A stretch of 64,000 nt of DNA from a candidate division WOR-3 bacterium (GCA_039802865.1 JBDRXL010000003.1:15085-79084), one strand, 5' to 3'; positions 17,404 to 62,627 are shown, numbered from the stretch's first letter. Made by a program: numbers and translations. Notes: a model not told the origin generated them from the sequence alone.

Positions 17404-18774
17404 TTATTTGACATAGTTCAATTGAAAATTTATGCTAAAAGCGATTGGTAAAGAGTTTTCTTGAAAGCTATAAATATAATTTTTAAATGTGTTTTTAATT
17501 AAATTATGTGCATTATTATAAAAACTAATTTTTGAACCAAAGCTAAAAAGAAAGCTACCTGTTGGAACAAGCACATTAAAAAATAAAGAATGATAATTTA
17601 GTAAATTGTTTTTTGTGTAAATATATCCATAGTTAGAAAGTGTTTTGGCATAAAATTTATGCATTAAAGAAAAACCTCCATATAAATTATTTAAAGGCTT
17701 TTGACCTAAAAATAAGCTTATTGTTAAGAAGTTAATTTTAAAATACTTATAAAATTCGGCAATTATACTTGAAGGAATTTTATAAGAAAACTCATAAGAA
17801 TTCGTATAAGTTGTATCTTTATAATTAAAGAAGAGATAAACAATGGCATAATTTACAATTTCAGTTGTATCGCCATTTTTAATAGCATAAAGATAATTTT
17901 CACTATATTTAATAGAATCTACATTATTTGAAAGGCTTGTGATATATCTAATTTCATCTGTAATTTTACCTTTTATTGTAAGTTCTGGTGAATAGCCTAA
18001 TTTTAATAAAGTTGTAGGATTGTAATAAGTAAGATAAAAGCTAAAATGAGATGTGTTATCTACCTCAAATGTGCGCTTTAATCCAAATGGATTATTTATA
18101 TAAGGAATAGCGTATAAATAAGCAAGCCATTTATAGTTTGTATAATTTAAAATTTTAACTTTTGGACTTGATGAAAGATAATAATTTTTGGCATTATATT
18201 CAATAAAATTGCCATTTTGATTAAAAAATCTTGCTTCAAGAGATAATAAAAAGCTTTTATAACCAATTTCAAAAGTTATTGGATTTGAGAAGATAGAGAA
18301 TTTTCCTGATGAAGTTAAATTTAAATTTCTATAAAGAGAATCAAAATTATATTCAACAATAATACTTCTATCAAGTCCTTGAACATCACTTGGATATAAA
18401 GTATCTATAATTTTCCCAAATATAGTATCCCATGGTTTTATATCTCTTTCTTGAGTAGTTTCAATATAAATCATTTCATTAAAATGATATTTCAAATCCA
18501 TTTGAAACTCATTAATTTTAAAACCCATACTTATTGCATTAAATCCCCCTCTTTGACCAAATACTTGCCTTTGCTCAATAAATAAACTATCACTTAATAT
18601 CCCATTTGGATTATAATTTAGTTTAATTAAGGAAGTTTTAGATTCCTCTGAATTTAAAGAAATAGAAAAGTAAAACTTCTTAAAAGCATATGGATTTTTA
18701 ATAGGAAATACAAGCTCATAAATTTGAGGTGTTTTAAAAAGTGTGTTTAAAGTGTTTATAATTAAGAAAAGCAT
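17404..18774 (-). CDS. hypothetical exported/outer-membrane protein
   Basis: Aromatic- and beta-rich; C-terminus FSINFQLNYVK; very short hydrophobic N-terminus MLFLII. Confidence 0.65.
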   Translation of the reverse strand: MLFLIINTLNTLFKTPQIYELVFPIKNPYAFKKFYFSISLNSEESKTSLIKLNYNPNGILSDSLFIEQRQVFGQRGGFNAISMGFKINEFQMDLKYHFNEMIYIETTQERDIKPWDTIFGKIIDTLYPSDVQGLDRSIIVEYNFDSLYRNLNLTSSGKFSIFSNPITFEIGYKSFLLSLEARFFNQNGNFIEYNAKNYYLSSSPKVKILNYTNYKWLAYLYAIPYINNPFGLKRTFEVDNTSHFSFYLTYYNPTTLLKLGYSPELTIKGKITDEIRYITSLSNNVDSIKYSENYLYAIKNGDTTEIVNYAIVYLFFNYKDTTYTNSYEFSYKIPSSIIAEFYKYFKINFLTISLFLGQKPLNNLYGGFSLMHKFYAKTLSNYGYIYTKNNLLNYHSLFFNVLVPTGSFLFSFGSKISFYNNAHNLIKNTFKNYIYSFQENSLPIAFSINFQLNYVK

Positions 18775-18785
18775 AGTTTGAAATT

Positions 18786-19226
18786 TTAATGGTAATAAAA
18801 ATTCTTTAAAAGCTCTTTAAATTCATTTTCAAAATAATTTACTTTCCTTACAATTACTCTATGATTTAATCTTATATCACTTGGAATTTGATAAAGACTA
18901 TATACTCCTCCAAATTTTGGCTCTCTTAAAACATATATAATTTCTGAAATCCTTGAAAGAACAATTGCAAAAGCACACATAATACAAGGTTCAACATTAA
19001 CATAAATTTTACACTCATATAAAAATTTTCTATTTAATTTTTTAAAAGCTTTTCTCATAGCAATTATTTCTGCATGCTCTAAAACATTATTTTTTGTTCT
19101 ATTTATAGCTTTTGAAATAATTTTATCTTTATATGTTATAATTGCACAAATAGGAATTTCATTTTTCTTAATTGCTTTTTTACAATCTCTTAAAATAATT
19201 TCAAAAATTTTCTCTTCATTTAACAA
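18786..19226 (-). CDS. tadA: tRNA adenosine deaminase
   Basis: EIPICA, HAE, EPCIMC, EPKFGG, LNH. Confidence 0.88.
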   Translation of the reverse strand: MLNEEKIFEIILRDCKKAIKKNEIPICAIITYKDKIISKAINRTKNNVLEHAEIIAMRKAFKKLNRKFLYECKIYVNVEPCIMCAFAIVLSRISEIIYVLREPKFGGVYSLYQIPSDIRLNHRVIVRKVNYFENEFKELLKNFYYH

Positions 19227-20508: not shown

Positions 20509-20512
20509 CTTG

Positions 20513-20535
20513 AAAATTTTAAAGTCTTTAAAATT
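20513..20535. promoter_or_regulatory. back-to-back elements for rimO and the DUF218 gene
   Basis: AAAATTTTAAA 20513-20523 (minus) and TTTAAAATT 20527-20535 (plus, ATG at 20540). Confidence 0.65.
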
Positions 20536-20539
20536 ATCA

Positions 20540-21202: not shown

Positions 21203-21205
21203 AAT

Positions 21206-22216: not shown

Positions 22217-22219
22217 AGC

Positions 22220-22230
22220 TTTAAAATTTT
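22220..22230 (+). promoter_or_regulatory. TTTAAAATTTT element for proS
   Basis: GCTTTAAAATTTTCTCT-ATG. Confidence 0.7.
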
Positions 22231-22234
22231 CTCT

Positions 22235-24999: not shown

Positions 25000-25000
25000 G

Positions 25001-26077
25001 TTAAAACTGAGATGTAAAATAAGGTTTTGGGTCAACTGCTTCCTTTCCTATTCTTAATTCAAAATGAACTAATTCATCTCCCACTTTTGCTATTTGTTGT
25101 CCCTTTATAACTTTATCTCCTCTCTTTACACTAATTCCGATTACTTGACTATATACTGTATAAAATCCCGAATGTTCAATTATAATTATATTTCCATAGC
25201 CTTCTATAAATCCAACATAAACAACTATTCCACTTTCTGCTGCCCTTACTGGACTATTTCTTGGTGCTTTTATATCTATGCCACTATTTTTAATTCTCGT
25301 TCCATAAACATTATCAAATATATATCCAAAATCATTTACAATTTTCCCATTTACTGGCATAAGTAAAGATATTGCAGATGTTTTCTTTGCTTCCTCTTTT
25401 TTCTTTGAAAGCTCTGATATAATTTTTTCAAGTTTTTGCTTTGATTTTTCAAGTTCTGATAAATAATTTTGCTTTTGAATTTTATTTTTTCTAATTTTTT
25501 CCAATTTTGCTTGTTTTAAATTTTTTAATTTTTCAAGTTCCTTTAATGCAATTTCTTCTTCAATTAAACTTTGCTCTAAAATTTTTAAATTTTTATTTAT
25601 TTCATTCTCTGTAATTTCAAGTTCTTTTTGTTTAGCTTTTAAATTATCTCCAAGGGCTTTATAATACTTTAAAATTGACATTAAACTAACCTCAATTTTA
25701 TATGATTCATAAAATGAACCTGTTCTTAAAAGCAATTCCCACATATTATTTTTTGGAAGTTTGTAAAGTAACTTTGCAGATGTGCTAAGTTTTTCTTTTG
25801 TTTTTTCAATTTCTTCCAAAATTGCTTGCTTTTTTATATTTAAAACATAAATTTCATCTGAAAGTTTTTGAATTTGTCCTTTTAATAAATCAAGTTTTTG
25901 ATTGTATAATTCAATTCTTGATTGTAAAACAGATAATTCATAAAGGATATTTTTTTCTTCCTTTTTTAATTCTTCAAGTTTATTTTGATTTTCAATAATA
26001 AGTTGATTTATTTGTTCAAGTTGCTTTTGATAATCTTCAATACTCTGTGCTAATAGCCATAGCAACACTTCCTCCAC
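25001..26077 (-). CDS. EnvC-like murein hydrolase activator (coiled coil plus degenerate M23)
   Basis: Long coiled coil, NSGIDI, GYGNIIIIEH, VHFELR; start may be GTG 26068 (MLLWLLAQ). Confidence 0.85.
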   Translation of the reverse strand: MEEVLLWLLAQSIEDYQKQLEQINQLIIENQNKLEELKKEEKNILYELSVLQSRIELYNQKLDLLKGQIQKLSDEIYVLNIKKQAILEEIEKTKEKLSTSAKLLYKLPKNNMWELLLRTGSFYESYKIEVSLMSILKYYKALGDNLKAKQKELEITENEINKNLKILEQSLIEEEIALKELEKLKNLKQAKLEKIRKNKIQKQNYLSELEKSKQKLEKIISELSKKKEEAKKTSAISLLMPVNGKIVNDFGYIFDNVYGTRIKNSGIDIKAPRNSPVRAAESGIVVYVGFIEGYGNIIIIEHSGFYTVYSQVIGISVKRGDKVIKGQQIAKVGDELVHFELRIGKEAVDPKPYFTSQF

Positions 26078-30521: not shown

Positions 30522-30746
30522 GTGGTTTGGGACATTTGGTTAAGAAAGATTGATAAAAGGAAGTTGAATATGTTTATTATTTCAAAAGAGATATTTGATT
30601 ATAGAGGGGGGGGGTTAGGATTATATAATTTCTTTTTAATTCAGAAAGGAAGAGAGATTACTAAAATTTTAAATAAAATATATCCGTTGATAGTTGCTGG
30701 ATGTATAGATGCTTTAACATTTTCAGCCTATGAAAAGCAATTTTAA
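30522..30746 (+). CDS. short ORF, possibly a gene remnant
   Basis: Follows element 30505-30515; contains a G-run; no recognisable motif. Confidence 0.25.
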   Translation: MVWDIWLRKIDKRKLNMFIISKEIFDYRGGGLGLYNFFLIQKGREITKILNKIYPLIVAGCIDALTFSAYEKQF

Positions 30747-32265
30747 AAAAGCTTTATACTTTTTAGGAGATGAATGGAAAGAATTCTTATTATTTTTACT
30801 TGCACTTTGTCTCTTATTTGCAGTAGAAGCAATTGCTCATCCTTTAATGGTTAAATTTATCTTTGATGAAGCTACAATTAATAAAAATTTTAAAGTATTT
30901 TTAATTTTAGTAATTGTGTTTTTATTAATAGGAATAATTATCAATTTCACAGGTTGGTTATTAGAATTATGGGGTAAGCGTTTTGAAAATAAAGTAATAA
31001 GTAAAGTTGTTGAAAAGATGTTAAAATCTTATTATAATAAAGATTATAATTCTATACTTCAAAAGGGAGAGGGTTATTTTGTAGGTAGAGTATATAAAGA
31101 TGTAACAGAAGCTTTTATACCATTTATAAAATCAATAAGAGAAATGAGTGTAAATTTAACAAGGGTAATATCTTTTTTGGGTGTTCTTATTTATATTTCT
31201 TGGCAGGCAACATTAACCATAATAGGTCTTATTCCTTTTATTGTATATTTCTCAAATTTACTCTCACAAAAAATAAAATCAGCAACTATGGTAGAAAGAG
31301 AAAGTGAAAGTAATTTTATAAATGTATTAAACAAAAGTATTTCTTCTTATAAATTAGTTAATATCTATGGCGTTTTACCAAAAGTTTTAGAAGGCACAAT
31401 TTTTAGCTTATTAAATTATTTAAATGCCCTATATAGAAATTTTAAATTAATAACTACTTATAGAACAGGTGTTGATCTTATAATGAATATATCTGACTCT
31501 TTCTCTTTGATTGTAGGTGCAATTTTTGTATTCCAAGGAAAGTTAACATTTGGTGGATATCTTGCTTTTGTTACAGCATTTTGGAGAGCAGTTACCGCAG
31601 TTTCAGAATTTTTCAGACCTATTGGTGAATTAAGTAGAAGTTTTACTGTAATAAATAGATTATATGAATTTGAAAAAGAGGGAAGAAGGGAATTTTATGA
31701 GAAAGGAAATGAAGTTGTTCTTGAAAATGTTTATTTTTCATATGATAAAAATGTTTTATTAAAAGAATTTTCTCTTAAAATAAAGAGTGGAGAAAGAGTG
31801 CTTATTTTGGGACCAAATGGTTCAGGTAAAACAACTATTGCAAATATAATTTCTGGTTTGCTTTCACCACAAAAAGGAAAAGTAATTTTGCCTGAGAGAA
31901 TTTCATCCCTTACACTTCCTTTTGAATTTCCATTATTAAAAATAAAAGAATTACCTATTGATAAAGATTTATTAAGAGATTTTAAACTTGATGAATTTCT
32001 TGAAAATTATCCTGATGAATTATCAGTAGGACAAAGACAAAAATTATCTATTGCCCTTGCTCTTTCAAAAGAAGCTGATTTATATATTTTTGATGAGCCC
32101 CTTGCTAATTTAGACAAAGAAAGTAATCCATTAATTATGAAAAAGATATTAGAAAAGACAAAAGGTAAAACCTTAATTGTTATAATGCATAAGGGTGAGG
32201 AGTGGTATCCATATTTTGACAAAATTTTAAATATAGAGGAAATGAAAAAGGAGGGGGTTGTATGA
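30730..32265 (+). CDS. ABC exporter, fused permease/ATPase
   Basis: TM domain plus GPNGSGKT, LSVGQRQ, IFDEP. Confidence 0.92.
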   Translation: MKSNFKKALYFLGDEWKEFLLFLLALCLLFAVEAIAHPLMVKFIFDEATINKNFKVFLILVIVFLLIGIIINFTGWLLELWGKRFENKVISKVVEKMLKSYYNKDYNSILQKGEGYFVGRVYKDVTEAFIPFIKSIREMSVNLTRVISFLGVLIYISWQATLTIIGLIPFIVYFSNLLSQKIKSATMVERESESNFINVLNKSISSYKLVNIYGVLPKVLEGTIFSLLNYLNALYRNFKLITTYRTGVDLIMNISDSFSLIVGAIFVFQGKLTFGGYLAFVTAFWRAVTAVSEFFRPIGELSRSFTVINRLYEFEKEGRREFYEKGNEVVLENVYFSYDKNVLLKEFSLKIKSGERVLILGPNGSGKTTIANIISGLLSPQKGKVILPERISSLTLPFEFPLLKIKELPIDKDLLRDFKLDEFLENYPDELSVGQRQKLSIALALSKEADLYIFDEPLANLDKESNPLIMKKILEKTKGKTLIVIMHKGEEWYPYFDKILNIEEMKKEGVV

Positions 32266-34445
32266 TTAGCTTTTTTGTTATTGTATCTCTTGAAACGATA
32301 TCTCTATCAAAGTTTAAAGAAGGTGAAATTATAATTGATGGGGTTATATCCGAAGAAGCTTGGAATAAGGTTTCTCCAATTACTGAATTTTTTGAATTTC
32401 GACCAGTTGAAGGGGGAAAGCCATCTTTTAAAACTGAGCTATTCTTAGGATATGATAATAATAATTTATATGTTGCTTTCAAGTGCTATGATGATATGAA
32501 AACAGTTAGAAAAACGCTAACCAAAAGAGATGAACTTTCAACCGATGATATGGTTTGGTTTGAACTTGATATTTATGGGAAGGGAGAAAGTTATATTTTT
32601 GGAACAAATCCCTTAGGGGTTCAATTTGATGGGAAAAGAGTGCCACCTAATTTTTCAGAGGACTATTCCTTTGATACATATTTTGAAGTTAAATCTTTTA
32701 TTTCTGATTCTTTTTGGTCTGCAGAATTTAAAATACCATTTTCATCTTTAAGATTTCAAAGTAAGGAAAAACAGGAATGGATACTTGTTGCTTTCAGATT
32801 AAGACCAAGAGAAACATTTATTATTTATACTTTTCCTTTAATTTCAAGAAATAATCCCCTTTTATCTGCACAAGGAGCAAGAATTATAATTCCAGAGCGA
32901 ATTTATTCAAGAGAGAAAAGGTATGATATAATCCCCTATTTAATAAGCTCTCAAAGTGGTATAAAAGAAATTGAATATCAAAATGATAAAGTAAAGTTTA
33001 ATGCTGGTTTATCTGGAAAGATAGGGTTAAAAGAAAATTTGATTTTAGATTATGCACTAAATCCTGACTTTTCACAGATAGAAACAGATATTCCACAAAT
33101 AGATGTTAATACAACATATGCTTTATATTATCCTGAGAAAAGACCTTTATTTATGGAAGGTTCAGAGTTTGCTACAACATCCTTAAATTTATTTTATACA
33201 AGGATGGTTAATAATCCCCTTTATGCTTTAAAACTTACAGGAAAAATTTCTCTTTTTGACTTATATTTCCTTTCATCTTATGATGAAAATACAATTTATA
33301 TCTTACCATTTGAAGATGCAAGCTTTAGTTTTTCAAGTAATAAAAAAAGTTTTATAAATTTTTTAAGAATGCGCTCAACATTTTTAAATAATCAATCTTA
33401 TATAGGTTTTTTAATAGGAGATAGAGAAGTAATAAGAGATTCTTTTGATAATGGATTTGGAAGAATTTTTGCATTTGATACAAGAATAATATTTTTAAGG
33501 AATTATATTTTAGAGTATCAGGGAGGATATTCTTACGTTAAGGAGCCTGATGATACTGCTTTATTTCCTGGTATTGGAATAAATTTTAAAGAATATACTG
33601 ATAGATTTGATGGTGAGAAATTCTCTGGTTATGCAAATTATTTATCATTTAGCTCTATTTTCAGGAACTTAGTTTTATCTTTATTTTATAAAGAGAATTC
33701 AGAAGGTTTTCGTTCTGATATTGGATTTATAGAAAGGAACAATTTTAAAATAAAGGGAGTTTTAATAAATCCACGCTTTTATCCTAATAAATTTGGCTTT
33801 ACTGAAATTAATTTCTGGACTAACTATACAAATGAAGAAAATTTTGAAGGAGTTTTAAAACAAGAGAAAATAACTTTTGGTTTTAGTTCTAATTTTTCTT
33901 TTTCACAATTAACATTTGGTAGTCAATATTCAATTGAAGATAAAAACACATTTAATATCTATTTTCTTGACTATTCAAAATTTAATGATATTTACACTTA
34001 TTCTTTCTGGCTTAATGGGACTCCTTTTAAATTCTTAGATTTTCAACTTCGTTATAAGGAGGGTAAGGCTATATTTTACCAAATGGATACTTTGCTTTAT
34101 AATGCTACTTTATCAGGCTATTTTAACTTTAAATTTACAAGATTTGTTTTTTATGTAGGATTTGATAATCAAGTATTTTACTTGGAAAGATATAAAGATA
34201 AAATAACGGAAGCTTTGGTTTTTTATAGTGGATTAAATTATAGTTTTACAGATAAAGTTTTTACAAGAATAAATATCACATATTATAAGGACTTGTTTGG
34301 AATTTATCCCTTATTTACATATCAGCTTAATCCTTTTACAGTGTTTTATCTTGGTGCGAATATAAATGCTATGAAATATGGGAATAAGCTTGAAGGTGAA
34401 AATCATCAGATATTTTTGAAATTCCAATATATGTTTAAAATTTAG
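32262..34445 (+). CDS. CBM9-like/DUF5916 outer-membrane protein
   Basis: IDGVISEEAW, WSAEFKIPFSSLRF, NPDFSQIE, YPEKRPLFMEG, C-terminal FLKFQYMF. Confidence 0.85.
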   Translation: MISFFVIVSLETISLSKFKEGEIIIDGVISEEAWNKVSPITEFFEFRPVEGGKPSFKTELFLGYDNNNLYVAFKCYDDMKTVRKTLTKRDELSTDDMVWFELDIYGKGESYIFGTNPLGVQFDGKRVPPNFSEDYSFDTYFEVKSFISDSFWSAEFKIPFSSLRFQSKEKQEWILVAFRLRPRETFIIYTFPLISRNNPLLSAQGARIIIPERIYSREKRYDIIPYLISSQSGIKEIEYQNDKVKFNAGLSGKIGLKENLILDYALNPDFSQIETDIPQIDVNTTYALYYPEKRPLFMEGSEFATTSLNLFYTRMVNNPLYALKLTGKISLFDLYFLSSYDENTIYILPFEDASFSFSSNKKSFINFLRMRSTFLNNQSYIGFLIGDREVIRDSFDNGFGRIFAFDTRIIFLRNYILEYQGGYSYVKEPDDTALFPGIGINFKEYTDRFDGEKFSGYANYLSFSSIFRNLVLSLFYKENSEGFRSDIGFIERNNFKIKGVLINPRFYPNKFGFTEINFWTNYTNEENFEGVLKQEKITFGFSSNFSFSQLTFGSQYSIEDKNTFNIYFLDYSKFNDIYTYSFWLNGTPFKFLDFQLRYKEGKAIFYQMDTLLYNATLSGYFNFKFTRFVFYVGFDNQVFYLERYKDKITEALVFYSGLNYSFTDKVFTRINITYYKDLFGIYPLFTYQLNPFTVFYLGANINAMKYGNKLEGENHQIFLKFQYMFKI

Positions 34446-34491
34446 ATGCTCCTTTTTAATTTGACAACTTGAAATTTGACCCCCCGTGTAC

Positions 34492-34502
34492 TTTAAAATT
34501 TT
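34492..34502 (+). promoter_or_regulatory. TTTAAAATTTT element, putative 16S rRNA promoter -10
   Basis: Ends 14 nt before the 5' processing-stem arm; TTGACA/TTGAAA/TTGACC hexamers lie upstream but at non-canonical spacing. Confidence 0.7.
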
Positions 34503-34544: not shown

Positions 34545-34562
34545 CGAGTAATAAACCTTTTC

Positions 34563-36100
<1,538 letters not shown>

Positions 36101-36119
36101 TTATAAGGAAAATAAGTAA

Positions 36120-36173: not shown

Positions 36174-36246
36174 GGGGCGGTAGCTCAGTTGGGAGAGCGT
36201 CCGTTTCGCAGGCGGAAGGTCGCCGGTTCAAATCCGGTCCGCTCCA
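36174..36246 (+). tRNA. tRNA-Ala(CGC), CCA not encoded
   Basis: Acceptor GGGGCGG/CCGCTCC with G3:U70 and A73; anticodon arm TCCGT-TTCGCAG-GCGGA; T-loop GGTTCAAATCC. Confidence 0.95.
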
Positions 36247-37208
36247 CAAATTTTCCCAAAATCTCCAAGAATAATTTTCCCTTTTACATTTGAAATTTCA
36301 CAATTTGAACCAATAATAGAATTTTCAATATTCACATTTAGAACTTTTGAATTTTCCATAATTATAGAATTTCTTATAGATGAATTCTTAATAATTACTC
36401 CTTCTGAAATATCTACAAAAGGTCCTATTATTGAATTTTCAATTATACAATTTTCTCCTATAAAAACAGGTTCAATAATTTTTGAATTTATTATATTTGA
36501 TAGAATTTTTGTTCCATTTTCCTTTAAAATATACTCCATAGTTTCTAAATATGTTTCTATTTTCCCACAATCTTGCCAATAATCAATTCTTAATGCTTTT
36601 AATTTATAATCGCTTTGAATAAGAATTTTTAAAGCATCTGTTAATTGATATTCATTTTTTGTTTTTATATTCTTTTCATATAATTTTTCAATTGCTTCTT
36701 TCAATTTTTTGCTATCTTTTATATAATATATTCCTGCAATTGCTAAATTAGTTTTTGGATTATCTGGTTTTTCTTCAAGATCTATTATATATTCATTTTC
36801 TAAAACAACTATTCCAAATCTTTTAGGTTCTTCAACTTCCTTTACTGCTAAAAAATCTTCTTTAAAGTCAAATTTTCCATCATATAAAGCATCTGGCAAG
36901 ACAATCAAAATATCACTATCAATATCTTTTATACCCATATAAACTGCATCTGCTAAACCTTTTGGTTCCTTTTGAATTCTATAAGAAGTATTCTTATAAA
37001 TGTTCCTTAAAAACTCATATGTATTATATCCAAATTCATCATCTGATATTATTATTATAATTTCTTCAAAATCACACCAATTTTTCATCTTATCAAATAG
37101 GTGCTCTATAATAGGTTTTGAGTAAATTCTTAATAGGGATTTTGATCTATATAAACTAAAAGGTCTTAATCTTGTTCCTTTACCTGCACTTGGTAATATA
37201 ACTTTCAT
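36228..37208 (-). CDS. sugar-phosphate nucleotidyltransferase (glucose-1-phosphate thymidylyltransferase long-form-like)
   Basis: MKVILPSAGKGTRLRP, QKEPKGLADA, EEKP, WQDCG, hexapeptide tail; start at ATG 37208. Confidence 0.9.
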   Translation of the reverse strand: MKVILPSAGKGTRLRPFSLYRSKSLLRIYSKPIIEHLFDKMKNWCDFEEIIIIISDDEFGYNTYEFLRNIYKNTSYRIQKEPKGLADAVYMGIKDIDSDILIVLPDALYDGKFDFKEDFLAVKEVEEPKRFGIVVLENEYIIDLEEKPDNPKTNLAIAGIYYIKDSKKLKEAIEKLYEKNIKTKNEYQLTDALKILIQSDYKLKALRIDYWQDCGKIETYLETMEYILKENGTKILSNIINSKIIEPVFIGENCIIENSIIGPFVDISEGVIIKNSSIRNSIIMENSKVLNVNIENSIIGSNCEISNVKGKIILGDFGKICGADRI

Positions 37209-37795
37209 TTTATATTCCCTCCTATTATAATTCCAAGCACCGCTCCTGCAATAACATCTGAAAACCAATGCTGATCTTTATAAATCCTTGCCATACCAAC
37301 TCCAATAGCTAAGGAATAACTTAAAACACTTATAAATTTATTATTTAATTGTGATGATAAATAACTTGCTGTTGTAAATGCAATAATAGTATGTCCAGAG
37401 GGAAATGATTGATAATCATTATTTAAGTTAAATGTTTTAAATGAAAGAGAACCTTCATCTGTATAAGGTCTTGCTCTTCCAAAAATATACTTTAATCCTA
37501 AAACAGTGCCACCACTTATTAAAAAGCTTTTTAAACCATTTATAGAGAATTTTTCTAATTTTTCATCGTTTTTTAGCTTTGAAATAAAATATAAGACTGA
37601 ATAGCCTATTATATGATATTGTCCTTCACCAAGCTCATTAAGAAAATTAAAACTTGAATTTAAAAAACCATTCTTATAATTTAAAGAATAATTTCTAATC
37701 CTTTCATCTAAATTGAACATACTATATGGAACAAGTATATAACTTGTTGTTAATAAACTCATTTGAAAATCACTTAAACTTATTAAAAATATCAT
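37205..37795 (-). CDS. PAP2 family phosphatase
   Basis: K...GRARP, SFPSGH, ARIYKDQHWFSDV. Confidence 0.92.
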   Translation of the reverse strand: MIFLISLSDFQMSLLTTSYILVPYSMFNLDERIRNYSLNYKNGFLNSSFNFLNELGEGQYHIIGYSVLYFISKLKNDEKLEKFSINGLKSFLISGGTVLGLKYIFGRARPYTDEGSLSFKTFNLNNDYQSFPSGHTIIAFTTASYLSSQLNNKFISVLSYSLAIGVGMARIYKDQHWFSDVIAGAVLGIIIGGNIK

Positions 37796-39384: not shown

Positions 39385-39912
39385 TTAAATTTTAAAGGAT
39401 AAAAATAAAACCCTTGTCTCACCCTTTATATAATCTTTATAAATTTTGTAATTTTCAATTTTTATATTTGTTTTTGATGAAAGTTGTAATATAAACATAC
39501 CATCTTCTTTTAATCTCATTTTTGCTAATCGTAAAAGCTGATTATAGAATTTATAATCATATGGTGGGTCTGCCAAAATAATATCAAATTTATATTCATA
39601 GTTTCTTAAAAACTTTAATGCATCCATTTTTATAAAAACTGCCTTATTTTCATATTTTAGAATTTTTATATTTTCAAGAATTGCTTTTTGTGATGCTCTT
39701 GAAATATCTACAAATATACAGCTTTTTGCTCCTCTTGAAAGGGCTTCAAATCCAAGTGCTCCACTACCTGCAAAAATTTCAAGAATTTCTTTATTTATAA
39801 TATAATCCCCAAGTGTATCAAATATGGATTTTTTTATAAATGAGCTTGTAGGTCTAATATCTTTTGGACTTTTTATAATAAATCCTTTTTTCTCTCCCCC
39901 TTCTATTCTCAC
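39385..39912 (-). CDS. rsmD: 16S rRNA m2G966 methyltransferase
   Basis: MRIEGG, IRPT, FAGSGALGFEALSRGA, DPPY. Confidence 0.93.
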   Translation of the reverse strand: MRIEGGEKKGFIIKSPKDIRPTSSFIKKSIFDTLGDYIINKEILEIFAGSGALGFEALSRGAKSCIFVDISRASQKAILENIKILKYENKAVFIKMDALKFLRNYEYKFDIILADPPYDYKFYNQLLRLAKMRLKEDGMFILQLSSKTNIKIENYKIYKDYIKGETRVLFLSFKI

Positions 39913-40799
39913 AATCTCACTTCCTTTCTTAATTTATTTGGAATAACGATAAGATATTTCCCTCTCTTTTCAAATTCAAAAACTTTTAAATTTTCATCAA
40001 ATAGAACATTTTTTATTAATTTTCCATTTTTATCATAAATTAAAATTTTTCCATTATAATTTAGGTTCTTATATATAAAAATTTTTTTGCTTTTTGTTGA
40101 AATTACAAAATTAATTGTATCTAAAATTTCCCCTTTAATTTCTTTGAGATTAGCACTATCATTTATAAATACAAAGTGTTGCTTAAAACAATATGCAGGA
40201 ATTGTATCAATAATTATTGAGCTATCTTTAAGTTTTATAGTTTTTTCTTTATAATCTAAGCAATCTAAATAAAATCTATAATTTCCTTGGGCTTTTATAG
40301 TTATTTTATAAACAATGCCTGGTTTAAAATCAAAGCTTTGCCATATTTTATTTTTACTCATTTGCCAATTTTTAAATTTATATTCTTTTTGACTAAAATC
40401 TATATTTTTTAGAAAATTACTTTCAATTTTAAAAATTCTTATTTTACAATCTTCATTTGAATTATAAAAACTTAACCTAAAAATTACACTATCAAAATTT
40501 CCAAAATCCTTTATTTCTAAAAATAATTTGTTTGAACTTTTATTTGAGCTTTCTGATTTTTCATTTATTGAAACTTTAAATTTATTGCCTAAACAATTAT
40601 TTAGATAATCAATTCTTATATATGGATCTTTAACATTATAAACAACTTGTTCAATATAACCAATTTTTTCGGAAAATATATCCAAAGAACTATCACTTTT
40701 TTCAATTTTTAAATTTTCAATATCCCAATATTTATATCCGCTTTCTTCTAATTGTGAAAAATCACTGTTTTTAAAAAATAACAAAATTTCAAGAATCAT
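39909..40799 (-). CDS. hypothetical exported protein with T9SS-CTD/FlgD-Ig-like C-terminus
   Basis: ILIYDKNGKLIK...RGKYLIVI; short hydrophobic N-terminus. Confidence 0.55.
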   Translation of the reverse strand: MILEILLFFKNSDFSQLEESGYKYWDIENLKIEKSDSSLDIFSEKIGYIEQVVYNVKDPYIRIDYLNNCLGNKFKVSINEKSESSNKSSNKLFLEIKDFGNFDSVIFRLSFYNSNEDCKIRIFKIESNFLKNIDFSQKEYKFKNWQMSKNKIWQSFDFKPGIVYKITIKAQGNYRFYLDCLDYKEKTIKLKDSSIIIDTIPAYCFKQHFVFINDSANLKEIKGEILDTINFVISTKSKKIFIYKNLNYNGKILIYDKNGKLIKNVLFDENLKVFEFEKRGKYLIVIPNKLRKEVRL

Positions 40800-46096: not shown

Positions 46097-47351
46097 TTAT
46101 TTTTTAACATTTTTCTTTGGTTTTATTGGTCAAGTATTTTATATAAAATTGGGCATAGCAATATCACCCTTTCGAGCCTTTTTTATTATTACTCTAATTT
46201 TATTACTTCTAAAATTTCTACTTGAAGAAGGAAGTTTTTATAATTTTTTAAAAAATTCTTTAAAATATGGTTGGTTTTTATTAATTTTATTGTTTTGGTC
46301 ATATTTAAGTTTGCTTTGGGCTATTGATTGGCAGTATGTTCCAACTGAGCTTAGTAATTTGACTGTTTATATTTTATTTTCTCTTATTTCACTTGCTATT
46401 ATTGAAAATAAAAGAGATTTTAAAATACTTATCTATATTTGGATATTTGTTTTTTTTCTTTCAATTCTTGTTGCATTTTGGGAGATATTAACAGCAAATC
46501 ATTTAATAACCTCACAATATCACAAATCAAATTATGTTAATAATAAATTTGAAACATTCATCGTTTATACAAAAGTTTTTATTCCTACAAGTTTTTATGG
46601 TAATCAAAACGATTTTTCTACATACATTATTTTATCCCTTCCAATTATCTTCTTTATGATAAAAAATTATTTTATAAAGCTACCCCTTATTTTTTCAGGT
46701 ATTTTTATAATTTTTTATGTTGTATCAAGGGCAAATTTAATTGGTTTATTCTTTCAGTCACTTTTTCTTCCATTTTTTATGAATAAAAAATTTAATTTAA
46801 TTTATGTTCCCTTGTTTATTTTTACAACAATTTTCTCAATTTATACTTTATATTATATAAAAACTACTTCTTATCCTGAATTTATTAAAGATGAAAGATT
46901 TTTAAGATTTTATGCAAATATAAGGAATAAAGTAATAACAACATTGCAGGCAAAAAAAGATTTTTCTACAATAATAAGAGAAAATTTATATAAATCAAGT
47001 TTTGAATACTTTTTAGATTCAAAAGGTTTGGGTGTTGGTGTGGGTCAGCTTAGTTATTTACTTGAAAATAAACCAAAATATTATGTTTTTTATTTTAAGG
47101 ACCCTCACAACTTTTATTTAGAAATTCTTACTAAATTTGGTATATTTGTATTTCTTGCTTATATTTTATTTTTAATTTACATTGTTTTAAATGCTTTAAA
47201 TTCTATATCAAATCCATTTTCAAAAGCCATTATTTTAAGTATTATTGGATTTTTGTTTGGTTCAATAAGTCCTTATAGTTTAATTTTATTTTATCCGTTA
47301 TGGGCTTTTATTGTGATTATAATGAATTACTTTAAGGTAGAACTAAAATGA
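46062..47351 (+). CDS. O-antigen ligase/polymerase (Wzy_C) family
   Basis: GNQND, SRA, GVGVG, PHNFYLEIL. Confidence 0.85.
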   Translation: MLLSISNLLKSSYFLTFFFGFIGQVFYIKLGIAISPFRAFFIITLILLLLKFLLEEGSFYNFLKNSLKYGWFLLILLFWSYLSLLWAIDWQYVPTELSNLTVYILFSLISLAIIENKRDFKILIYIWIFVFFLSILVAFWEILTANHLITSQYHKSNYVNNKFETFIVYTKVFIPTSFYGNQNDFSTYIILSLPIIFFMIKNYFIKLPLIFSGIFIIFYVVSRANLIGLFFQSLFLPFFMNKKFNLIYVPLFIFTTIFSIYTLYYIKTTSYPEFIKDERFLRFYANIRNKVITTLQAKKDFSTIIRENLYKSSFEYFLDSKGLGVGVGQLSYLLENKPKYYVFYFKDPHNFYLEILTKFGIFVFLAYILFLIYIVLNALNSISNPFSKAIILSIIGFLFGSISPYSLILFYPLWAFIVIIMNYFKVELK

Positions 47352-47625
47352 ATTTCTTTAATTCGTTTGTTTCTTTTTCCTTTAAAATGATAATATATAT
47401 TCCTTGTTTTGGTAGTTGATATTTATAAACATTTGTTCCTACGTTTGTAATGCTATAAAGTATTCTACCAGAATTATCATAAATGCTTAATATGGCTGGT
47501 TTGTCGCTATGAGCATATATAGTAGCACTTTGATTTTTTGTAATAACAGTTGATGCAACATCAAGCTTTATTTGAGCATGTGCTAGGCTTGTTAAAATTA
47601 AAAGTGTTAAAATAAACTTTCTCAT
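47332..47625 (-). CDS. small secreted protein, T9SS type A sorting-domain-like
   Basis: Canonical Sec signal (MRKF...AHA|Q); LSIYDNSGRIL...LPKQGIYIIIL. Confidence 0.6.
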   Translation of the reverse strand: MRKFILTLLILTSLAHAQIKLDVASTVITKNQSATIYAHSDKPAILSIYDNSGRILYSITNVGTNVYKYQLPKQGIYIIILKEKETNELKKFILVLP

Positions 47626-47630: not shown

Positions 47631-47681
47631 AAAATTTTAAAGCATACTTTTGAATAATTGCAATTAAAACTTTAAAATTTT
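47631..47681. promoter_or_regulatory. back-to-back elements for the CTD-like gene and sucC
   Basis: 47631-47641 (minus) and 47671-47681 (plus). Confidence 0.7.
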
Positions 47682-50870: not shown

Positions 50871-50872
50871 AG

Positions 50873-50888
50873 CTTTAAAATTTTAAAG
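50873..50888. promoter_or_regulatory. perfect 16-bp palindrome CTTTAAAATTTTAAAG, putative bidirectional promoter
   Basis: Fills 16 of the 18 bp between two divergent ATGs. Confidence 0.75.
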
Positions 50889-51629
50889 ATGGCGTTTTTT
50901 CTCCTTTCACAAATTGTTTTTAAATCTGAAAGTGTTAACATTTATATAAAAGATATAGGAAATATAACAGGCATTCAAGAATATTATATATCTCAAACTA
51001 AGTATAGAATAAATGAAAAACTAAATTTAAATAGGGAAAAGTTAGTAAGTAAATTTATGGAAAAATATTATGCGGGTAATAAGTCCATTATTATAGATCT
51101 GGATAATGATAGTGTTTATAGAATTGATAATTATGAGAAAAGTTATTATGTTTATAAATTGGATAATTACATAAGACCTATTGAAAAAGTTGAAGAAAAG
51201 AAAAAGGATGTAAAAGCAAAATTAAGTATTAAAAATTTAGGTGATTGTAATTATGAAATTAAGTTTAGTTTTGAAGGAGATAGTATCATTTCAAAAATTT
51301 GTTATAAAGAAATTGAAACAAATCAAGTTGAAAATCAATTCTTTTTAAATTATAATAAAAAAATTAAAGTGGATATAGATAGTAGAATTTTTCAAAAGCT
51401 TGGAGTATTTTCAATAAATAATCCATTTGTAAAATTTTTAATGAGTGATGTTGTAAAGAAATCTGATTTGGAAAAGATATTAAAAATTAAGGGTTATCCA
51501 TATACCATAGAGCTTAGATACTATAATGATACAAGCTTAGTTTATAAGTATTTTTCAAAGCTTATAAGAGTTGAGAATAGAGGGGACGTAAATGTTTTTA
51601 AGATTGATACTACTTATAATCGCAAGTAG
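50889..51629 (+). CDS. hypothetical, probably exported protein
   Basis: MAFFLLSQ N-terminus; IIDLDNDSVYRIDNYEKSYY resembles DUF4412-type proteins. Confidence 0.65.
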   Translation: MAFFLLSQIVFKSESVNIYIKDIGNITGIQEYYISQTKYRINEKLNLNREKLVSKFMEKYYAGNKSIIIDLDNDSVYRIDNYEKSYYVYKLDNYIRPIEKVEEKKKDVKAKLSIKNLGDCNYEIKFSFEGDSIISKICYKEIETNQVENQFFLNYNKKIKVDIDSRIFQKLGVFSINNPFVKFLMSDVVKKSDLEKILKIKGYPYTIELRYYNDTSLVYKYFSKLIRVENRGDVNVFKIDTTYNRK

Positions 51630-52826: not shown

Positions 52827-52830
52827 CTAT

Positions 52831-54014: not shown

Positions 54015-54017
54015 GCT

Positions 54018-55484: not shown

Positions 55485-55489
55485 TTATC

Positions 55490-56360: not shown

Positions 56361-56367
56361 ATAAACA

Positions 56368-58958: not shown

Positions 58959-58970
58959 AGTTCCAAAATT

Positions 58971-60029
58971 TTAAAGCCTGGAAATTTTTGAAAGCTGATA
59001 TAAGATTCCAAGTAAGAAAGAATTAACAATAAAGGAAGAACCTCCAAAACTAATAAAAGGCATAGGTATTCCAGTTGGTGGAAAAAGACCTACAACAACA
59101 GAGATATGTCCGAGTGTATAAATTGCTATATTTATTGAAATAGCAAAAGCCAATGTTGAAAATTCAATATTATTTTTATATAATTTTAGTGCTATTAAAA
59201 TTCCCCTAAATACAAGAAATAAAATTAAAATACTTACAAAAACTGCAAATATAAATCCCATTTCTTCTCCAATTATAGAGAATATAAAATCTGTATGAGC
59301 ATCAGGAAGATATAAGAATTTTGCTTTCCCTTCCCCAATACCAACCCCGAGTAATCCTCCATGAGCTAAACCTACTTTTGATTGTAAAACCTGGTAAGCT
59401 TCTGTAGATGAAAATCGTTTAATAGCATGGGGGAAGGAAAAAATTCCTAAAATTCCAAATGATAAAAGAATTATTGAACTTGTTAATATTGAAATAAAGT
59501 GAGAACCAACATAAAATGCACTAATTAAAAAAATTAATGAAATCATACCTGCTGTTGATAAATTTGGCTCAATCGCTATTAAGAAAACACCAAATAGTAT
59601 AACAAAAAACATCAATAAATAACTCTTAAATTCTAAAAGGTATCTTGAAAAAAAAGAAACTAAAAGAATTGTTGAAAGTCTAAAAATATCAGAGACCTGA
59701 ATGTTTATAATAAATAAGTTTAACCATCTTTTAGCGCCTCTAATTTCAGGAGCGATAGGTGATGGAAGTATTAAAACAAGAATTAATAACAATATAGAAA
59801 TAGCAAATAAATAAAGTGTATATTTTTTTAGCTCATTTAAGTTAATAAAATATCCAAGTATAAAGAAAAAAATCCCAATTAAAACTTTGCTAATGTGAAT
59901 TAACATATAATAAAAATCAGGTCTATTACTAACATATGCAAGATAAGAGCTTGAAGTATAAACAATAATTGTGCTAATTGTAATTAAAACTAAGTAAATA
60001 AAAAGGATATAAATATCGTTTCTAATCAT
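58971..60029 (-). CDS. ftsW: SEDS family peptidoglycan polymerase FtsW
   Basis: GAKRW, EPN, YLPDAHTDFIFSIIGEE, PTGIPMPFISFGGSS. Confidence 0.88.
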   Translation of the reverse strand: MIRNDIYILFIYLVLITISTIIVYTSSSYLAYVSNRPDFYYMLIHISKVLIGIFFFILGYFINLNELKKYTLYLFAISILLLILVLILPSPIAPEIRGAKRWLNLFIINIQVSDIFRLSTILLVSFFSRYLLEFKSYLLMFFVILFGVFLIAIEPNLSTAGMISLIFLISAFYVGSHFISILTSSIILLSFGILGIFSFPHAIKRFSSTEAYQVLQSKVGLAHGGLLGVGIGEGKAKFLYLPDAHTDFIFSIIGEEMGFIFAVFVSILILFLVFRGILIALKLYKNNIEFSTLAFAISINIAIYTLGHISVVVGLFPPTGIPMPFISFGGSSFIVNSFLLGILYQLSKISRL

Positions 60030-60804
60030 AGTTTTTCAGAATTTCTAAAAGCTCCTCAAAGTTATTTATTACATATTGAACAGAATTTTTAACAGCTTTA
60101 TGTGATTTTACAGGAGCTATGGATATATTTGATATTTTAAACATTTCCAAATCATTTATATAATCTCCTATGCTTACAATAAAGTTATAATTAAGAGTAT
60201 TTTTTATGACTTTTAATGCCTCTCCTTTATTTACATATTTATTTGAAATATCCATTACATAAAGTCCCTTCTTCTTACCACTTGGATATATATAATATCC
60301 AGAATTTCTAAAATTCTTTAAAAACATTTCAACTTCTTTTAAAACTTCAAAGTTATAACTTGCCAATACAATTTTATAAATGTTAAAGTTTGAAATTTCA
60401 TCTAAGTAAATTTTCTGATTAATGCGCCAGTGTTTTAGTGTAATTCCAAGTGAAAGCATATTTACATTTAAAATTGTTTTTTCTTTATAAAATATATTTA
60501 TAGCGCAATTTTTAAATTTCTTAATAAAATTTAAAATTTCAAAAACTTCTCTTTTTTCAATATAACTACTAAAATATTCTTTTCCATTTGTATCACAAAC
60601 AAGAGCTCCATCAAAACATATAAAAGGAACTTCTATATTTAATAATTTTGCAAAATAAAGAGCACTCAAATATGACCTTCCTGTTGCTATTGTAATATCA
60701 AATTTTTCTCTAAGTTGTTCAATTGCTTTTAATTTTTCATTATCTATTCTATCTTTCTTATCAATTAGCGTTCCATCTAAATCCAAAATTAAGAGCCTTT
60801 TCAA
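60022..60804 (-). CDS. Cof-type HAD-IIB hydrolase
   Basis: DLDGTL, ATGR, NKG, GDYINDLEM. Confidence 0.92.
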   Translation of the reverse strand: MKRLLILDLDGTLIDKKDRIDNEKLKAIEQLREKFDITIATGRSYLSALYFAKLLNIEVPFICFDGALVCDTNGKEYFSSYIEKREVFEILNFIKKFKNCAINIFYKEKTILNVNMLSLGITLKHWRINQKIYLDEISNFNIYKIVLASYNFEVLKEVEMFLKNFRNSGYYIYPSGKKKGLYVMDISNKYVNKGEALKVIKNTLNYNFIVSIGDYINDLEMFKISNISIAPVKSHKAVKNSVQYVINNFEELLEILKNYD

Positions 60805-62627
60805 AATGTATAGTCCAGTTGAAATTTTATATTTCTTGAAGGTAAAGGCATTGAGTTTGGATCTAAGCTCCTATATGCTACAACATTATTTATATTATTA
60901 CCTATGATTGAAAATTTTAAATTCTCATTATATAAAAAGCTTATACCAACATTTAACATTAAATAAGATGGTCTCTCTGCTTCAATAGGACTAACTTCCT
61001 CACCTTTTTTTGCAAAACTATAAATTGAATTTATATCTAATAAAAATTTTCTAAATTTATAATTTATTCCAAGAAATATCCTTGAAGGTGGAATATCCGA
61101 AAGCTCTATTTCCTTTCCTTCTAATTCACCCTTTCCTTCCATAAATGCATAATTTAATGTAAATAATAAATTATTTAATTTATATCTTGTTCCTAAGCTA
61201 ATACCAAAAACATTTGAAATACCATTTAGGTTTTTATATGTAAATATGGTATCTCCACTTGAAGTTAATGTATCTTCTTTTGTCATTTCTATAAAATCCC
61301 ATATAGCACTATAAAATCCTCCGATTTCAAAACTTAAAAATTCCTTATTGACTCCAATTATAATCTCATTATTTAAAGCTTTTTCTGGAGATAATTTCTC
61401 ATTACCTATTACAAATCCCCTTGTTCTTAAAACGTAACTTTTTGTTTCTACAAGCTCAGGAAATCTATATGCAAATTGAATATTTCCCCTTGTATAAAGA
61501 TAATTGTTAATTTTATAGTTTAATCCAATATGTCCAGATGGTGAAAAATTAAAATTGTTTTCTTGATTGTAAATTCCAATTCTTAATGCATAAGATAATA
61601 ATAATTTATTAAGTTTATTTGAATAAAAAGCGGTTATTCCAAAATTATTATATCCTGCATTTTTTAGCTCATCATATTGAAATACAGAGTTTTTGTAAAT
61701 TTTTGAATTTACATTTATCCTTCCAAAGTAATCAAATATTAGAAATTTATAATTATAGGTAAGTCCTAAGTCATAACCATTATAGACCGCATCACTTGTA
61801 TCAGTTTTTATAGTCCTACTTATAAAATTATAATAGTGAAAACCAAATGTCAAGTTTTCAGAAGTGGTAATAAAATAAATTTGTTCATCTTTTGGATATA
61901 GTCTAATTGCAGAACTAAACATTGCCCTATATAAATCAATTATTCTAAAATACCCAAGCTTAAATTCATAATTTTTATACTTATAAGCACTTAAAACATT
62001 AAATTTTTTAAAACTTGAATTATTTGATCTTATAAATGAGTTAGTCCATAATTTTTCTTTTAATGAAGTATCTGGATAAAAGTAATTTTCTGAGCTATTA
62101 AATCCACCTGCTATATAAAAATTATTAATAGGTTTTAATCCAGCAAATACTTTATAATTATTTCCATTTGTTCCATAACTTATATCAATTTCATTTTTTG
62201 AATTTACTCCTCTTAAATAATAAATTACACTACCACCAATTGCTCCAGAACCAAATGATGAAGCTCCTGAACCTTCAAGAACCTCTATGCCTTCAAACAT
62301 ATCAGATATTGAAAAATAAGCAGATGGTCCAATTTCTCTATCTGTTGCTATTCTATAACCATCTAAAAGGGCAATTGTTCTATATCTTGAAAATCCCCTT
62401 ATTGCAGGAACAGCACCATGGGCATCTTTCCCTTCAAAAGCAATTGTTGGAATTTTTATAAGCTTTTCTTCTATTTTATCAAAACTACTTATTAGATTTT
62501 GAAATTCATTCTCAGATATATAGTAAGAGGTTTTCGTATTTTCAACTTTCTTATAGTATTTAGCTTTTACTTCAACTTCGGGCAAAGTATAAGTAGTATC
62601 TGAATTTAAAAATAATAAGCTAATCAT
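60801..62627 (-). CDS. TonB-dependent receptor
   Basis: LPEVEV TonB-box-like, IRGF, IEVLEG..ASSFGSGAIGG plug, NEKLSPEK, C-terminal RNIKFQLDYTF. Confidence 0.92.
   Translation of the reverse strand: MISLLFLNSDTTYTLPEVEVKAKYYKKVENTKTSYYISENEFQNLISSFDKIEEKLIKIPTIAFEGKDAHGAVPAIRGFSRYRTIALLDGYRIATDREIGPSAYFSISDMFEGIEVLEGSGASSFGSGAIGGSVIYYLRGVNSKNEIDISYGTNGNNYKVFAGLKPINNFYIAGGFNSSENYFYPDTSLKEKLWTNSFIRSNNSSFKKFNVLSAYKYKNYEFKLGYFRIIDLYRAMFSSAIRLYPKDEQIYFITTSENLTFGFHYYNFISRTIKTDTSDAVYNGYDLGLTYNYKFLIFDYFGRINVNSKIYKNSVFQYDELKNAGYNNFGITAFYSNKLNKLLLSYALRIGIYNQENNFNFSPSGHIGLNYKINNYLYTRGNIQFAYRFPELVETKSYVLRTRGFVIGNEKLSPEKALNNEIIIGVNKEFLSFEIGGFYSAIWDFIEMTKEDTLTSSGDTIFTYKNLNGISNVFGISLGTRYKLNNLLFTLNYAFMEGKGELEGKEIELSDIPPSRIFLGINYKFRKFLLDINSIYSFAKKGEEVSPIEAERPSYLMLNVGISFLYNENLKFSIIGNNINNVVAYRSLDPNSMPLPSRNIKFQLDYTF

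Follow-up and report, generated by a model that had tools for sequence, protein, structure and literature searches.

Very short, uncharged N-termini on exported proteins of a WOR-3 bacterium as candidate minimal export signals, in a class in which no signal recognition particle was found

This study focused on a 64,000-nt stretch of DNA from a candidate division WOR-3 bacterium (positions 15085-79084 of contig C3 of the genome G000; hereafter the window), in which several envelope proteins, including a TonB-dependent receptor, begin with only a handful of hydrophobic residues, and which raises the question of how such proteins leave the cytoplasm. An earlier note on the window had picked out seven N-termini of this kind and proposed that they represent a lineage-specific minimal targeting signal served by adapted secretion components. 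Such a 'micro-signal' is defined here as Met followed by 5-8 residues rich in Ile, Leu and Phe, without Lys or Arg, and then a polar residue. All seven N-termini are present as described (Table 1), and about 100 exported or outer-membrane proteins of the genome were found to open in the same manner, with Met and 5-8 oily residues. The short uncharged N-termini are genuine, as had been supposed, being conserved and carried by obligately exported proteins in place of conventional signals, and they probably act as minimal export signals, a reading drawn from comparison of sequences.

Short hydrophobic N-termini and the proteins that carry them

The source genome (54 contigs, 1,641,042 bp, 27.7% GC, no N, 92% complete) belongs to the WOR-3 class Hydrothermia, and its TonB-dependent receptor shares 79% protein identity with the nearest named record, a 'Candidatus Hydrothermia bacterium' metagenome-assembled genome of the WOR-3 phylum. 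Hot-spring metagenomes of ten studies hold DNA near-identical to window positions 60001-64000. The class has a cultured member, strain sy37, for which both an inner and an outer membrane have been described (PMC12285271). Comparisons were made with 30 Hydrothermia relatives (31 genomes in all, the class sample) and within a phylum sample of 81 genomes. The protein set comprised 1599 open reading frames (ORFs) with a minimum length of 80 aa, which together account for 94% of the genome; their starts were called by a home-made procedure. An alternative genetic code was ruled out, since TAA (634), TGA (351) and TAG (165) all terminate long ORFs, as expected of the standard code.

A strict rule, under which residues 2-7 had to include five or more hydrophobic ones, residues 2-6 had to be free of polar ones and a polar residue had to appear no later than position 13, identified micro-signals in 118 of the 1599 ORFs. 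Hydrophobic runs of four, five, six and seven residues after Met1 numbered 39, 49, 29 and 6, against a geometric expectation of 24.5, 9.8, 3.9 and 1.6, and runs of five occurred at a rate of 3.06% after Met1 compared with 0.63% after internal Met, an excess of about fivefold. The sequence logo of the 118, M-[LI]-[FLIW]-[LIF]-[LI]-[LIF]-[LSI]-[Q/L/F/S], agrees with the consensus proposed from the window, M-(hydrophobic)5-7-(S/A/N)-(Q/polar). Counted from Met to the first polar residue, the hydrophobic stretch is 6-10 residues long in 113 of the 118 and is composed almost entirely of Leu, Ile and Phe; the residue before the first polar one is Ser, Ala, Thr or Gly in 49. The first polar residue is Gln in 40 cases, Asn in 28, Asp in 16 and Glu in 15, where the background frequency of Gln is 2.2%, and Gln stands at residue 8 in 28/118 micro-signal ORFs against 25/1452 others. 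A basic n-region is lacking, with a mean of 0.02 Lys plus Arg in residues 2-8 (1.24 in the 1452 others), and the ten residues that follow the segment carry a mean net charge of -0.60, the background being +0.05. Methionine aminopeptidase leaves Met in place when residue 2 is bulky, and as residue 2 is Leu, Ile or Phe in 101/118 the initiator Met should be retained. Transmembrane-like segments are absent from 93 of the 118 and single in 8, which gives a clean set of about 93-101 proteins; the other 17 are multi-pass membrane proteins.

The carriers of these starts include many that work outside the cytoplasm. The C-terminal domain (CTD) of type IX secretion system (T9SS) cargo, PF18962, gave 49 matches in the genome, 24 of them over the cut-off; 12 were unusable (9 cut by contig ends, 3 without a called ORF), and the remaining 37 proteins divided into 18 strict micro-signals, 6 relaxed uncharged ones, 5 conventional signals and 8 that fitted neither rule, five of these visibly opening with a similar oily stretch and three having uncertain starts. 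Strict micro-signals are therefore found on 18/37 CTD proteins compared with 100/1562 of the remaining ORFs (odds ratio 13.9, Fisher p = 6e-12). Seven matches to the Plug domain comprised three strict cases, one micro-like, one conventional (on a protein of 1080 aa) and two with uncertain starts. BamA (N-terminus MLIFVFNQ, from a TTG start behind the promoter-like element described below), the T9SS translocon protein SprA (MIWILVSWN, with an SprA_N match on contig C4), an M23 peptidase and a DUF5916 protein complete the list. A subset of the micro-signal proteins is type IX cargo, and none of the seven window examples belongs to it. About 30 window proteins of clear cytoplasmic Pfam families (such as PNPase, S15, MurG, PanB, RtcB, NuoD, MiaB, ProRS, thiolase, SucCD and SufBC) have polar, Lys/Glu-rich N-termini, and the motif was found in none of them.

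The seven window examples are of unequal weight. The TonB-dependent receptor opens with MISLLFLNS (codons 62601-62627), a micro-signal that is followed directly by a TonB-box-like LPEVEV and then by the Plug domain. The protein starting at 18774 is offered, as a lead only, as a FadL/DUF5723-like outer-membrane beta-barrel, on the strength of an ESM Atlas feature score of 0.94 and a structural TM of 0.6-0.7 to FadL/DUF5723 clusters, and the ESM Atlas likewise provides a lead, and only that, to a DUF4412-like identity for the protein starting at 50889. For the EnvC-like M23 protein, which had been given an approximate start, the short N-terminus is real and the start proved to be canonical: it is a GTG at 26068 that has GGAGG ahead of it and lines up with the ATG of the orthologues in relatives G005 and G006. 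The N-termini at 37795 and 40799 are also real, but they serve less well as examples: the latter has Glu at residue 4, which places it outside the strict class, and belongs to no recognised family, while the former is a PAP2 membrane protein with one transmembrane-like segment in a hydropathy scan, and is ambiguous because the segment may simply open a membrane protein, so that it is not a clean exported case. None of the seven micro-signals contains Cys, and so none has a lipobox with its +1 Cys; Arg is also absent, and with it the twin-arginine translocation (Tat) motif S/T-R-R-x-F-L-K.

Start positions and conservation

Short N-termini could in principle be an artefact of miscalled starts, of pseudogenes, or of an AT-rich or leaderless composition without any targeting role. 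The low GC content of the genome favors Ile, Leu and Phe codons, the start calling was home-made, and 42 of the 118 strict starts have neither a Shine-Dalgarno (SD) sequence nor the promoter-like element. Against this, upstream non-canonical starts were ruled out for most genes by in-frame stops within 0-5 codons: the number of open codons upstream of the 118 starts is at most 3 in 45, at most 5 in 63 and at most 10 in 89. The ORFs run to full length and their domains are intact, the excess of hydrophobic runs is missing at internal Met, and the enrichment on exported classes is strong. A GC effect is also contradicted by two other AT-rich genomes, G066 (31% GC) and G036 (29% GC), in which 1/87 and 0/69 ORFs passed the rule that 111/1494 passed in the source genome, and by relatives of 42-56% GC that have the same short starts. 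An artefactual origin is thus very improbable.

Two of the window starts are constrained by their surroundings, just as the earlier note had stated: the gene at 50889 has a divergent ATG 18 bp away, and that at 32262 has an SD sequence and an ATGA overlap with an upstream ABC transporter gene (30730..32265). A further constraint comes from a conserved element of 12-13 nt that stands 5-10 nt ahead of about 420 start codons of the genome, with the consensus GCTTTAAAATTTT[A/C]A and a TAAAAT core that ends 5-11 nt before the start; it is followed by the ATG in 45 of the 118 strict starts. The 18 bp between the divergent ATGs of the window form a palindromic copy, which reads the same toward both genes, and a divergent upstream neighbor is found for 50% of element genes versus 12% of SD genes. 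No -35-like box was visible with the element. A function as a ribosome-binding site was ruled out, as the 16S rRNA, which has the usual CCTCC at its 3' end, contains no sequence complementary to it, and as a copy also precedes the untranslated 16S rRNA gene. Because it is palindromic, common to divergent pairs and present before the 16S gene, and has no complement in 16S rRNA, the element appears to be part of a promoter, and the mRNAs would be leaderless or nearly so. If so, there is no room for a longer N-terminus in the 45 of 118 strict genes concerned. In run X16, which represents a related strain, the intergenic positions 62666-62743 upstream of the TonB receptor show numerous changes and small indels, and positions 62594-62665, the stretch that contains the micro-signal codons and the element, show none. 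Contigs of the metatranscriptome runs X19 and X20 overlap the receptor gene and its neighbors, but they cannot show 5' ends and may reflect DNA carry-over, and no conclusion was drawn from them.

The earlier note had named homologues with longer, upstream N-termini as evidence that would speak against its proposal, but the canonical starts of relatives turned out to be equally short, several having a stop 3-5 codons upstream. Matches to the TonB receptor were obtained in 19 of the 31 related genomes, and at 11/11 loci examined, of low and high GC, the orthologue opens with Met and 6-9 hydrophobic residues, its canonical start lying 7-13 residues ahead of the mature domain. Within the genus the starts read MNYFLIFLSDS, MIYFLFLAPD and MLFILTLED, and in a sister family MLWVISQVC, MVLVLFSSIC, MLPLLIAGTC and MLLVLFAGTC; an in-frame stop lies four codons upstream in locus L004 and three in L008. 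The sister-family receptors (L005-L012) have an extra, putative N-terminal carboxypeptidase-regulatory-like domain, read from the sequence, and their signals of 8-10 residues end in a conserved Cys, although the lipobox is not canonical. The M23 peptidase was matched in 31/31 relatives and had a hydrophobic start of 6-12 residues at 14/14 loci, with a single Arg in one; examples are MILFLLALE, MILLLLAD, MLLFVLGN and MMLFLHFLLVAPSE, and a stop lies five codons upstream in the orthologues of G005, G006, G009 and G011.

Within the genus, the letters of the segment drift while the residues after it are nearly invariant, which is how signal peptides behave. Positional equivalence to ordinary signals is also seen among paralogues. 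A screen with tight rules yielded one irrelevant pair only, and a relaxed screen gave a pair of CxxCH proteins, MLVIMLIS-QTSKLIW...CLTCH and MIRKIMIVLALYVKVGYA-QGSKIIW...CVTCH, that align at an offset of 10 with Gln in register; a second pair, on contig C31, does likewise (MLYFLLT-QMSLYGP and MRWLVGSLFLLLIYDFIYA-QMSKYGP). For the DUF5916 protein, the best 120 of 2119 homologues (E <= 1e-10, taxa by source names) were compared. Those listed at 45% identity or more, from WOR-3 and Hydrothermales, start about -5 to +13 residues from the query, and many bear short signals, e.g. MIKFIFLFSYLLTIQ and MLLLFIIIFLNQ. Those listed at 30-37% identity, from Zixibacteria, KSB1, Latescibacteria and Gemmatimonadota, mostly have 20-60 extra residues and conventional signals; a few of these distant homologues also lack Lys and Arg, but have longer cores.

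Export route, cleavage and the signal recognition particle

If the micro-signals act in export, the favored scheme is one in which the retained Met and 5-8 very hydrophobic residues serve as a Sec h-region without a basic n-region, followed by a small or polar residue and then very often by Gln. SecA would hand the nascent or completed chain to SecYEG, no signal recognition particle (SRP) component having been found in the class, and the uncharged N-terminus would bury itself at the lateral gate instead of being held on the cytoplasmic side by positive charge. Cleavage by the single signal peptidase I (SPase I), LepB, may then follow immediately ahead of Gln or of the first polar residue and would often make Gln the new terminus, and the mature protein would continue to the periplasm, the beta-barrel assembly machinery (BAM) or the type IX secretion machinery. 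Such a minimal Sec signal is plausible in that, in E. coli model signals, strong hydrophobicity of the core can offset missing N-terminal charge.

Several points weigh against this scheme, and some of them favor its main rival, in which the micro-signal is a real export signal that is never cleaved, so that the protein slips from the lateral gate and keeps an oily stub or stays loosely attached. In the 17 multi-pass membrane proteins among the 118, the segment is simply part of the first transmembrane segment. Textbook bacterial signals have about 18-30 (roughly 20-30) residues in total and an h-region of about 7-15, and a core of 5-8 residues that lacks a basic n-region lies at or below the lower end of that h-region length and would not span the bilayer. 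The residue before the first polar one is bulky (Leu, Phe, Ile or Val) in 66/118, a poor fit to SPase I, and a -3/-1 site by a permissive definition, its -1 falling within residues 6-14, was found in 81/118 compared with 58/118 at control residues 36-44 (p = 0.0035), which is a modest enrichment. The plant-type glutaminyl cyclase PF05096 was not found in the source genome; an M28-type cyclase was not searched for. The machinery also still handles charged signals, as lipoproteins, which remain anchored until processed, keep long charged ones: Lys or Arg is present in 51 of 58 lipoprotein-like signals and absent from 7 (median Cys position 16). Both the bulky residues and the modest site excess, as well as the charged lipoprotein signals, would be accounted for if the micro-signals stayed on. 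In this rival, the core of 6-8 residues would be too weak a hold to keep the protein in the membrane, and LepB would be left to serve only the few conventional signals. Against it, Gln is strongly enriched at residues 8-10, in parallel with the A-x-A-Q termini of the genome's conventional signals, the Gln of the paralogues aligns with the predicted mature N-terminus, and segments that drift among close orthologues ahead of conserved downstream residues are what cleaved signals show. Export without cleavage was therefore judged unlikely.

Export with cleavage through Sec is also consistent with what was found of the machinery. SecA, SecY, one LepB, the lipoprotein signal peptidase LspA, two Omp85 proteins and SprA are all encoded in the genome. 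Signs that SecA, SecY or LepB are adapted to the short signals were not found; all three look ordinary in domain content and length, a comparison made at a coarse level only. SecA was found in 81/81 phylum genomes with no change in size (frames of 919-1188 aa, once two frames cut by contig ends, of 747 and 789 aa, are set aside). LepB carries the catalytic motifs SGSM and KRVIGLPGD behind a single short anchor; it is the sole signal peptidase I (G000:C21:24832-25507, minus strand), and its anchor, WIWTIIIVLLL, has only about 11-12 hydrophobic residues before SGSM.

An adapted SRP had been considered as well, but neither Ffh nor FtsY nor SRP RNA turned up in any of the 31 class genomes. The signal-binding M domain of Ffh (PF02978) was matched in 0/31, several of which are rated 100% complete and one of which is in 3 contigs; the GTPase domain common to Ffh and FtsY (PF00448) gave nothing at E <= 1e-8 in 15/15 class genomes, and only P-loop noise of 20 bits in the source genome; and SRP RNA (RF00169) was matched in 0/31. 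In control genomes, each of the two domains was matched in 14/14 and the RNA in 12/14 (10/14 over the cut-off). When six Ffh and four FtsY proteins from within the phylum were used as tblastn queries against the source genome, the best E was 0.003. The search method recovered YidC in 29/31 relatives, SecA in 81/81 genomes and the M23 protein in 31/31. Across the phylum, 46 genomes have the M domain, almost all with two strong PF00448 matches, of about 430-480 aa and 280-330 aa, and 26/81 have neither Ffh/FtsY domain. Five genomes (G037, G043, G067, G076 and G056) have no M domain and one weaker SRP54-type GTPase (138-158 bits, 354-466 aa), which may be FlhF or a remnant. Ffh, FtsY and 4.5S RNA, not found in the genomes searched, may have been lost class-wide. 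YidC was not found in the source genome, probably because of a gap in the 92%-complete assembly, as all four genus-mates have it. A compensating ribosome-binding tail was not seen on YidC, only 3-8 residues following the domain in 3/3 loci, and among the 29 class genomes that matched YidC, G030 alone gave a second match, a partial one.

These absences bring in a further possibility, namely that the micro-signals use a route other than SecA/SecYEG, either an unrecognised receptor that took over after SRP loss or a YidC-type path. The defining basic n-region is missing from the signal, the SRP components are missing from the class, and many proteins of the genome are without an assigned family. 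Yet micro-signals are equally frequent in genomes that have both Ffh and FtsY (G045, 6/64; G078, 6/66; G090, 4/38), SecA and SecY are present at ordinary size, the YidC of the class lacks the ribosome-binding C-tail, and large beta-barrel proteins and T9SS cargo are established as classical Sec clients. Another route is a rather improbable explanation, less likely than a Sec-dependent one.

A wider sample, to which 24 other genomes contributed 35-200 kb each (23-173 ORFs per genome, the strict rule being applied to first canonical starts), allowed short starts to be compared with SRP status, with the caveats that it is small, that the genomes are related and that start calling is crude in GC-rich genomes. 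Within the class, a genus-mate (G001) had 8/89, two order-mates 4/35 (G009) and 3/53 (G016), and other members 5/173, 5/81, 1/92 and 0/53. SRP-less genomes outside the class had 8/71, 4/90, 0/59, 1/39, 3/69, 1/33, 1/46, 0/37 and 1/23, and SRP-bearing genomes 0/92, 1/87, 0/69, 6/64, 6/66, 0/67, 4/38 and 1/38. Strict micro starts thus reach 9-10% in 3/8 Ffh-bearing genomes and are absent from 3/17 without Ffh, and the hits of G045, G078 and G037 resemble those of the source genome. Among 29 readable N-termini of TonB receptors across the phylum, read by eye, short starts and SRP status were again mixed. The trait is not lineage-specific in the sense first proposed, since starts of this kind also occur in genomes sampled from other WOR-3 families; rather, short uncharged signals are a patchy WOR-3 trait, shortest in this genus and not in one-to-one relation with SRP loss. 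Loss of SRP as the cause of micro-signals is not supported.

The micro-signals may be compared with known systems. Like ordinary Sec/SPase I signals, they are N-terminal, with a hydrophobic core and then a polar stretch with small residues, they occur on outer-membrane, periplasmic and T9SS cargo proteins and hold the same place in paralogues and distant homologues, and the early mature region that follows is depleted of positive charge; they differ in having no basic n-region, in being far shorter and in the often bulky residue before the polar stretch. A 'Q-rule', in which Gln directly follows the SPase I site and is later cyclised, was reportedly described for Bacteroidetes by Bochtler and co-workers in 2018. 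The present lineage is also of the Fibrobacteres-Chlorobi-Bacteroidetes (FCB) group, has conventional signals ending in A-x-A-Q and most often has Gln as the first polar residue of its micro-signals, although these are one third of the usual length before Gln, and the cyclase family that such a rule would suggest, PF05096, was not found. A likeness to lipoprotein signals cut by signal peptidase II (SPase II) is seen in the order-level TonB receptors whose segments end in a conserved Cys, and in the seven uncharged lipoprotein-like signals of the genome, but the residues before the relatives' Cys (Ile, Thr, Val, Gln, Ser) do not form a canonical lipobox.

We offer only tentatively the broader proposal, which may well prove too sweeping, that a class of free-living diderms has lost SRP and exports most of its non-lipoprotein secretome through uncharged signals of 7-10 residues that engage Sec in a manner unlike the n-h-c model. 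Signals of that kind are too short for the classical hairpin with the N-terminus inside, so their engagement with Sec would have to differ, as possibly would their removal or release. Protein biogenesis without SRP is reported for mitochondria and, in the laboratory, for Streptococcus mutans and E. coli suppressor strains (PMC8321541, PMC8546722, PMC7844537, 10.1101/2021.01.06.425660). As there, membrane and secretory proteins would be made without Ffh and FtsY; unlike there, the loss in Hydrothermia would be natural, ancient and class-wide in free-living diderms, with no second YidC in 28/29 class genomes and no C-terminal tail on YidC. The tripartite signal and the universality of SRP, which one of these sources calls conserved in all organisms (PMC7844537), are two pillars of protein-targeting biology. 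The literature search found no report of short signals or SRP loss in WOR-3, though supplements may hold gene tables, and the portions of the WOR-3 genome papers checked, including that on strain sy37 (PMC12285271), lack the terms 'signal recognition', 'signal peptide', 'Ffh', 'FtsY' and 'secretion'. Standard predictors would probably miss most of this secretome, and inventories of WOR-3 secretomes, carbohydrate-active enzymes and surface proteins may be badly underestimated. If true, uncharged Sec signals of 7-10 residues would set a new natural lower limit on length and provide a compact tag for engineering, and a real loss of SRP would provide a natural system for SRP-free targeting of polytopic membrane proteins. 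Both traits are directly testable in strain sy37.

Other signals and features of the window

The coordinates of the short N-termini, of the contrasting signals and of other features are collected in Table 1. Conventional Sec, lipoprotein and Tat signals do coexist with micro-signals in the window, as previously pointed out. The conventional signals that end in A-x-A-Q are few in the genome as a whole.

Table 1. Genes with short N-termini, contrasting signals and other features of the window
Feature	Position	Strand	Remarks
TonB-dependent receptor	60801..62627	-	N-terminus MISLLFL-NSDTTYTLPEVEV; Pfam Plug E 1.3e-9
Promoter-like element CTTTAAAATTTT	62633..62644	-	5 nt upstream of ATG 62627
DUF5916/CBM9-like envelope protein	32262..34445	+	N-terminus MISFFVIVS-LE; Pfam DUF5916
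456-aa protein	17404..18774	-	N-terminus MLFLII-NT; leaderless-type start; no Pfam match
246-aa protein	50889..51629	+	N-terminus MAFFLL-SQ; leaderless-type start; no family match
Intergenic palindrome, 18 bp, AGCTTTAAAATTTTAAAG	50871..50888	.	Between divergent ATGs 50870 (-) and 50889 (+)
EnvC-like coiled-coil and Peptidase_M23 protein	25001..26068	-	N-terminus (M)LLWLLA-Q; Pfam M23 E 5.4e-22
296-aa protein, no family match	39909..40799	-	N-terminus MILEILLFF-KN; in-frame stop immediately before ATG
PAP2 integral-membrane phosphatase	37205..37795	-	N-terminus MIFLISL-SD; Pfam PAP2 E 2.4e-23
Small protein, conventional signal (contrast)	47332..47625	-	MRKFILTLLILTSLAHA-Q; weak T9SS-CTD match, E 0.0025
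Conventional lipoprotein signal (contrast)	6644..7327	-	MKRTLIFLTIFLVFFISC
Lipoprotein-type signal without Lys/Arg	7324..7980	-	MIILIFVLMLLGC; one of 7 uncharged
PqqD-domain protein, twin-arginine motif (contrast)	2499..2825	+	MTRRTFLK
Element copy	34491-34501	+	About 60 nt before untranslated 16S rRNA gene
Further element copy	47670-47680	+	
Further element copy	10593-10616		
16S rRNA gene	34562-36101		
tRNA-Ala	36174-36247		Anticodon CGC by ARAGORN

The lipoprotein-type signals are short too, yet most of them keep Lys or Arg, unlike the SPase-I-type signals. The Tat example, a protein of 108 aa, joins a perfect twin-arginine motif, TRRTFLK, to a PqqD domain, which is an unusual pairing. The 16S rRNA gene is followed by the tRNA-Ala gene and then by protein genes on the opposite strand; with no 23S gene following it, the rRNA operon appears to be split, and the ORFs listed at 34597-34803, 35211-35675 and 35706-36059 lie inside the 16S gene and are spurious.

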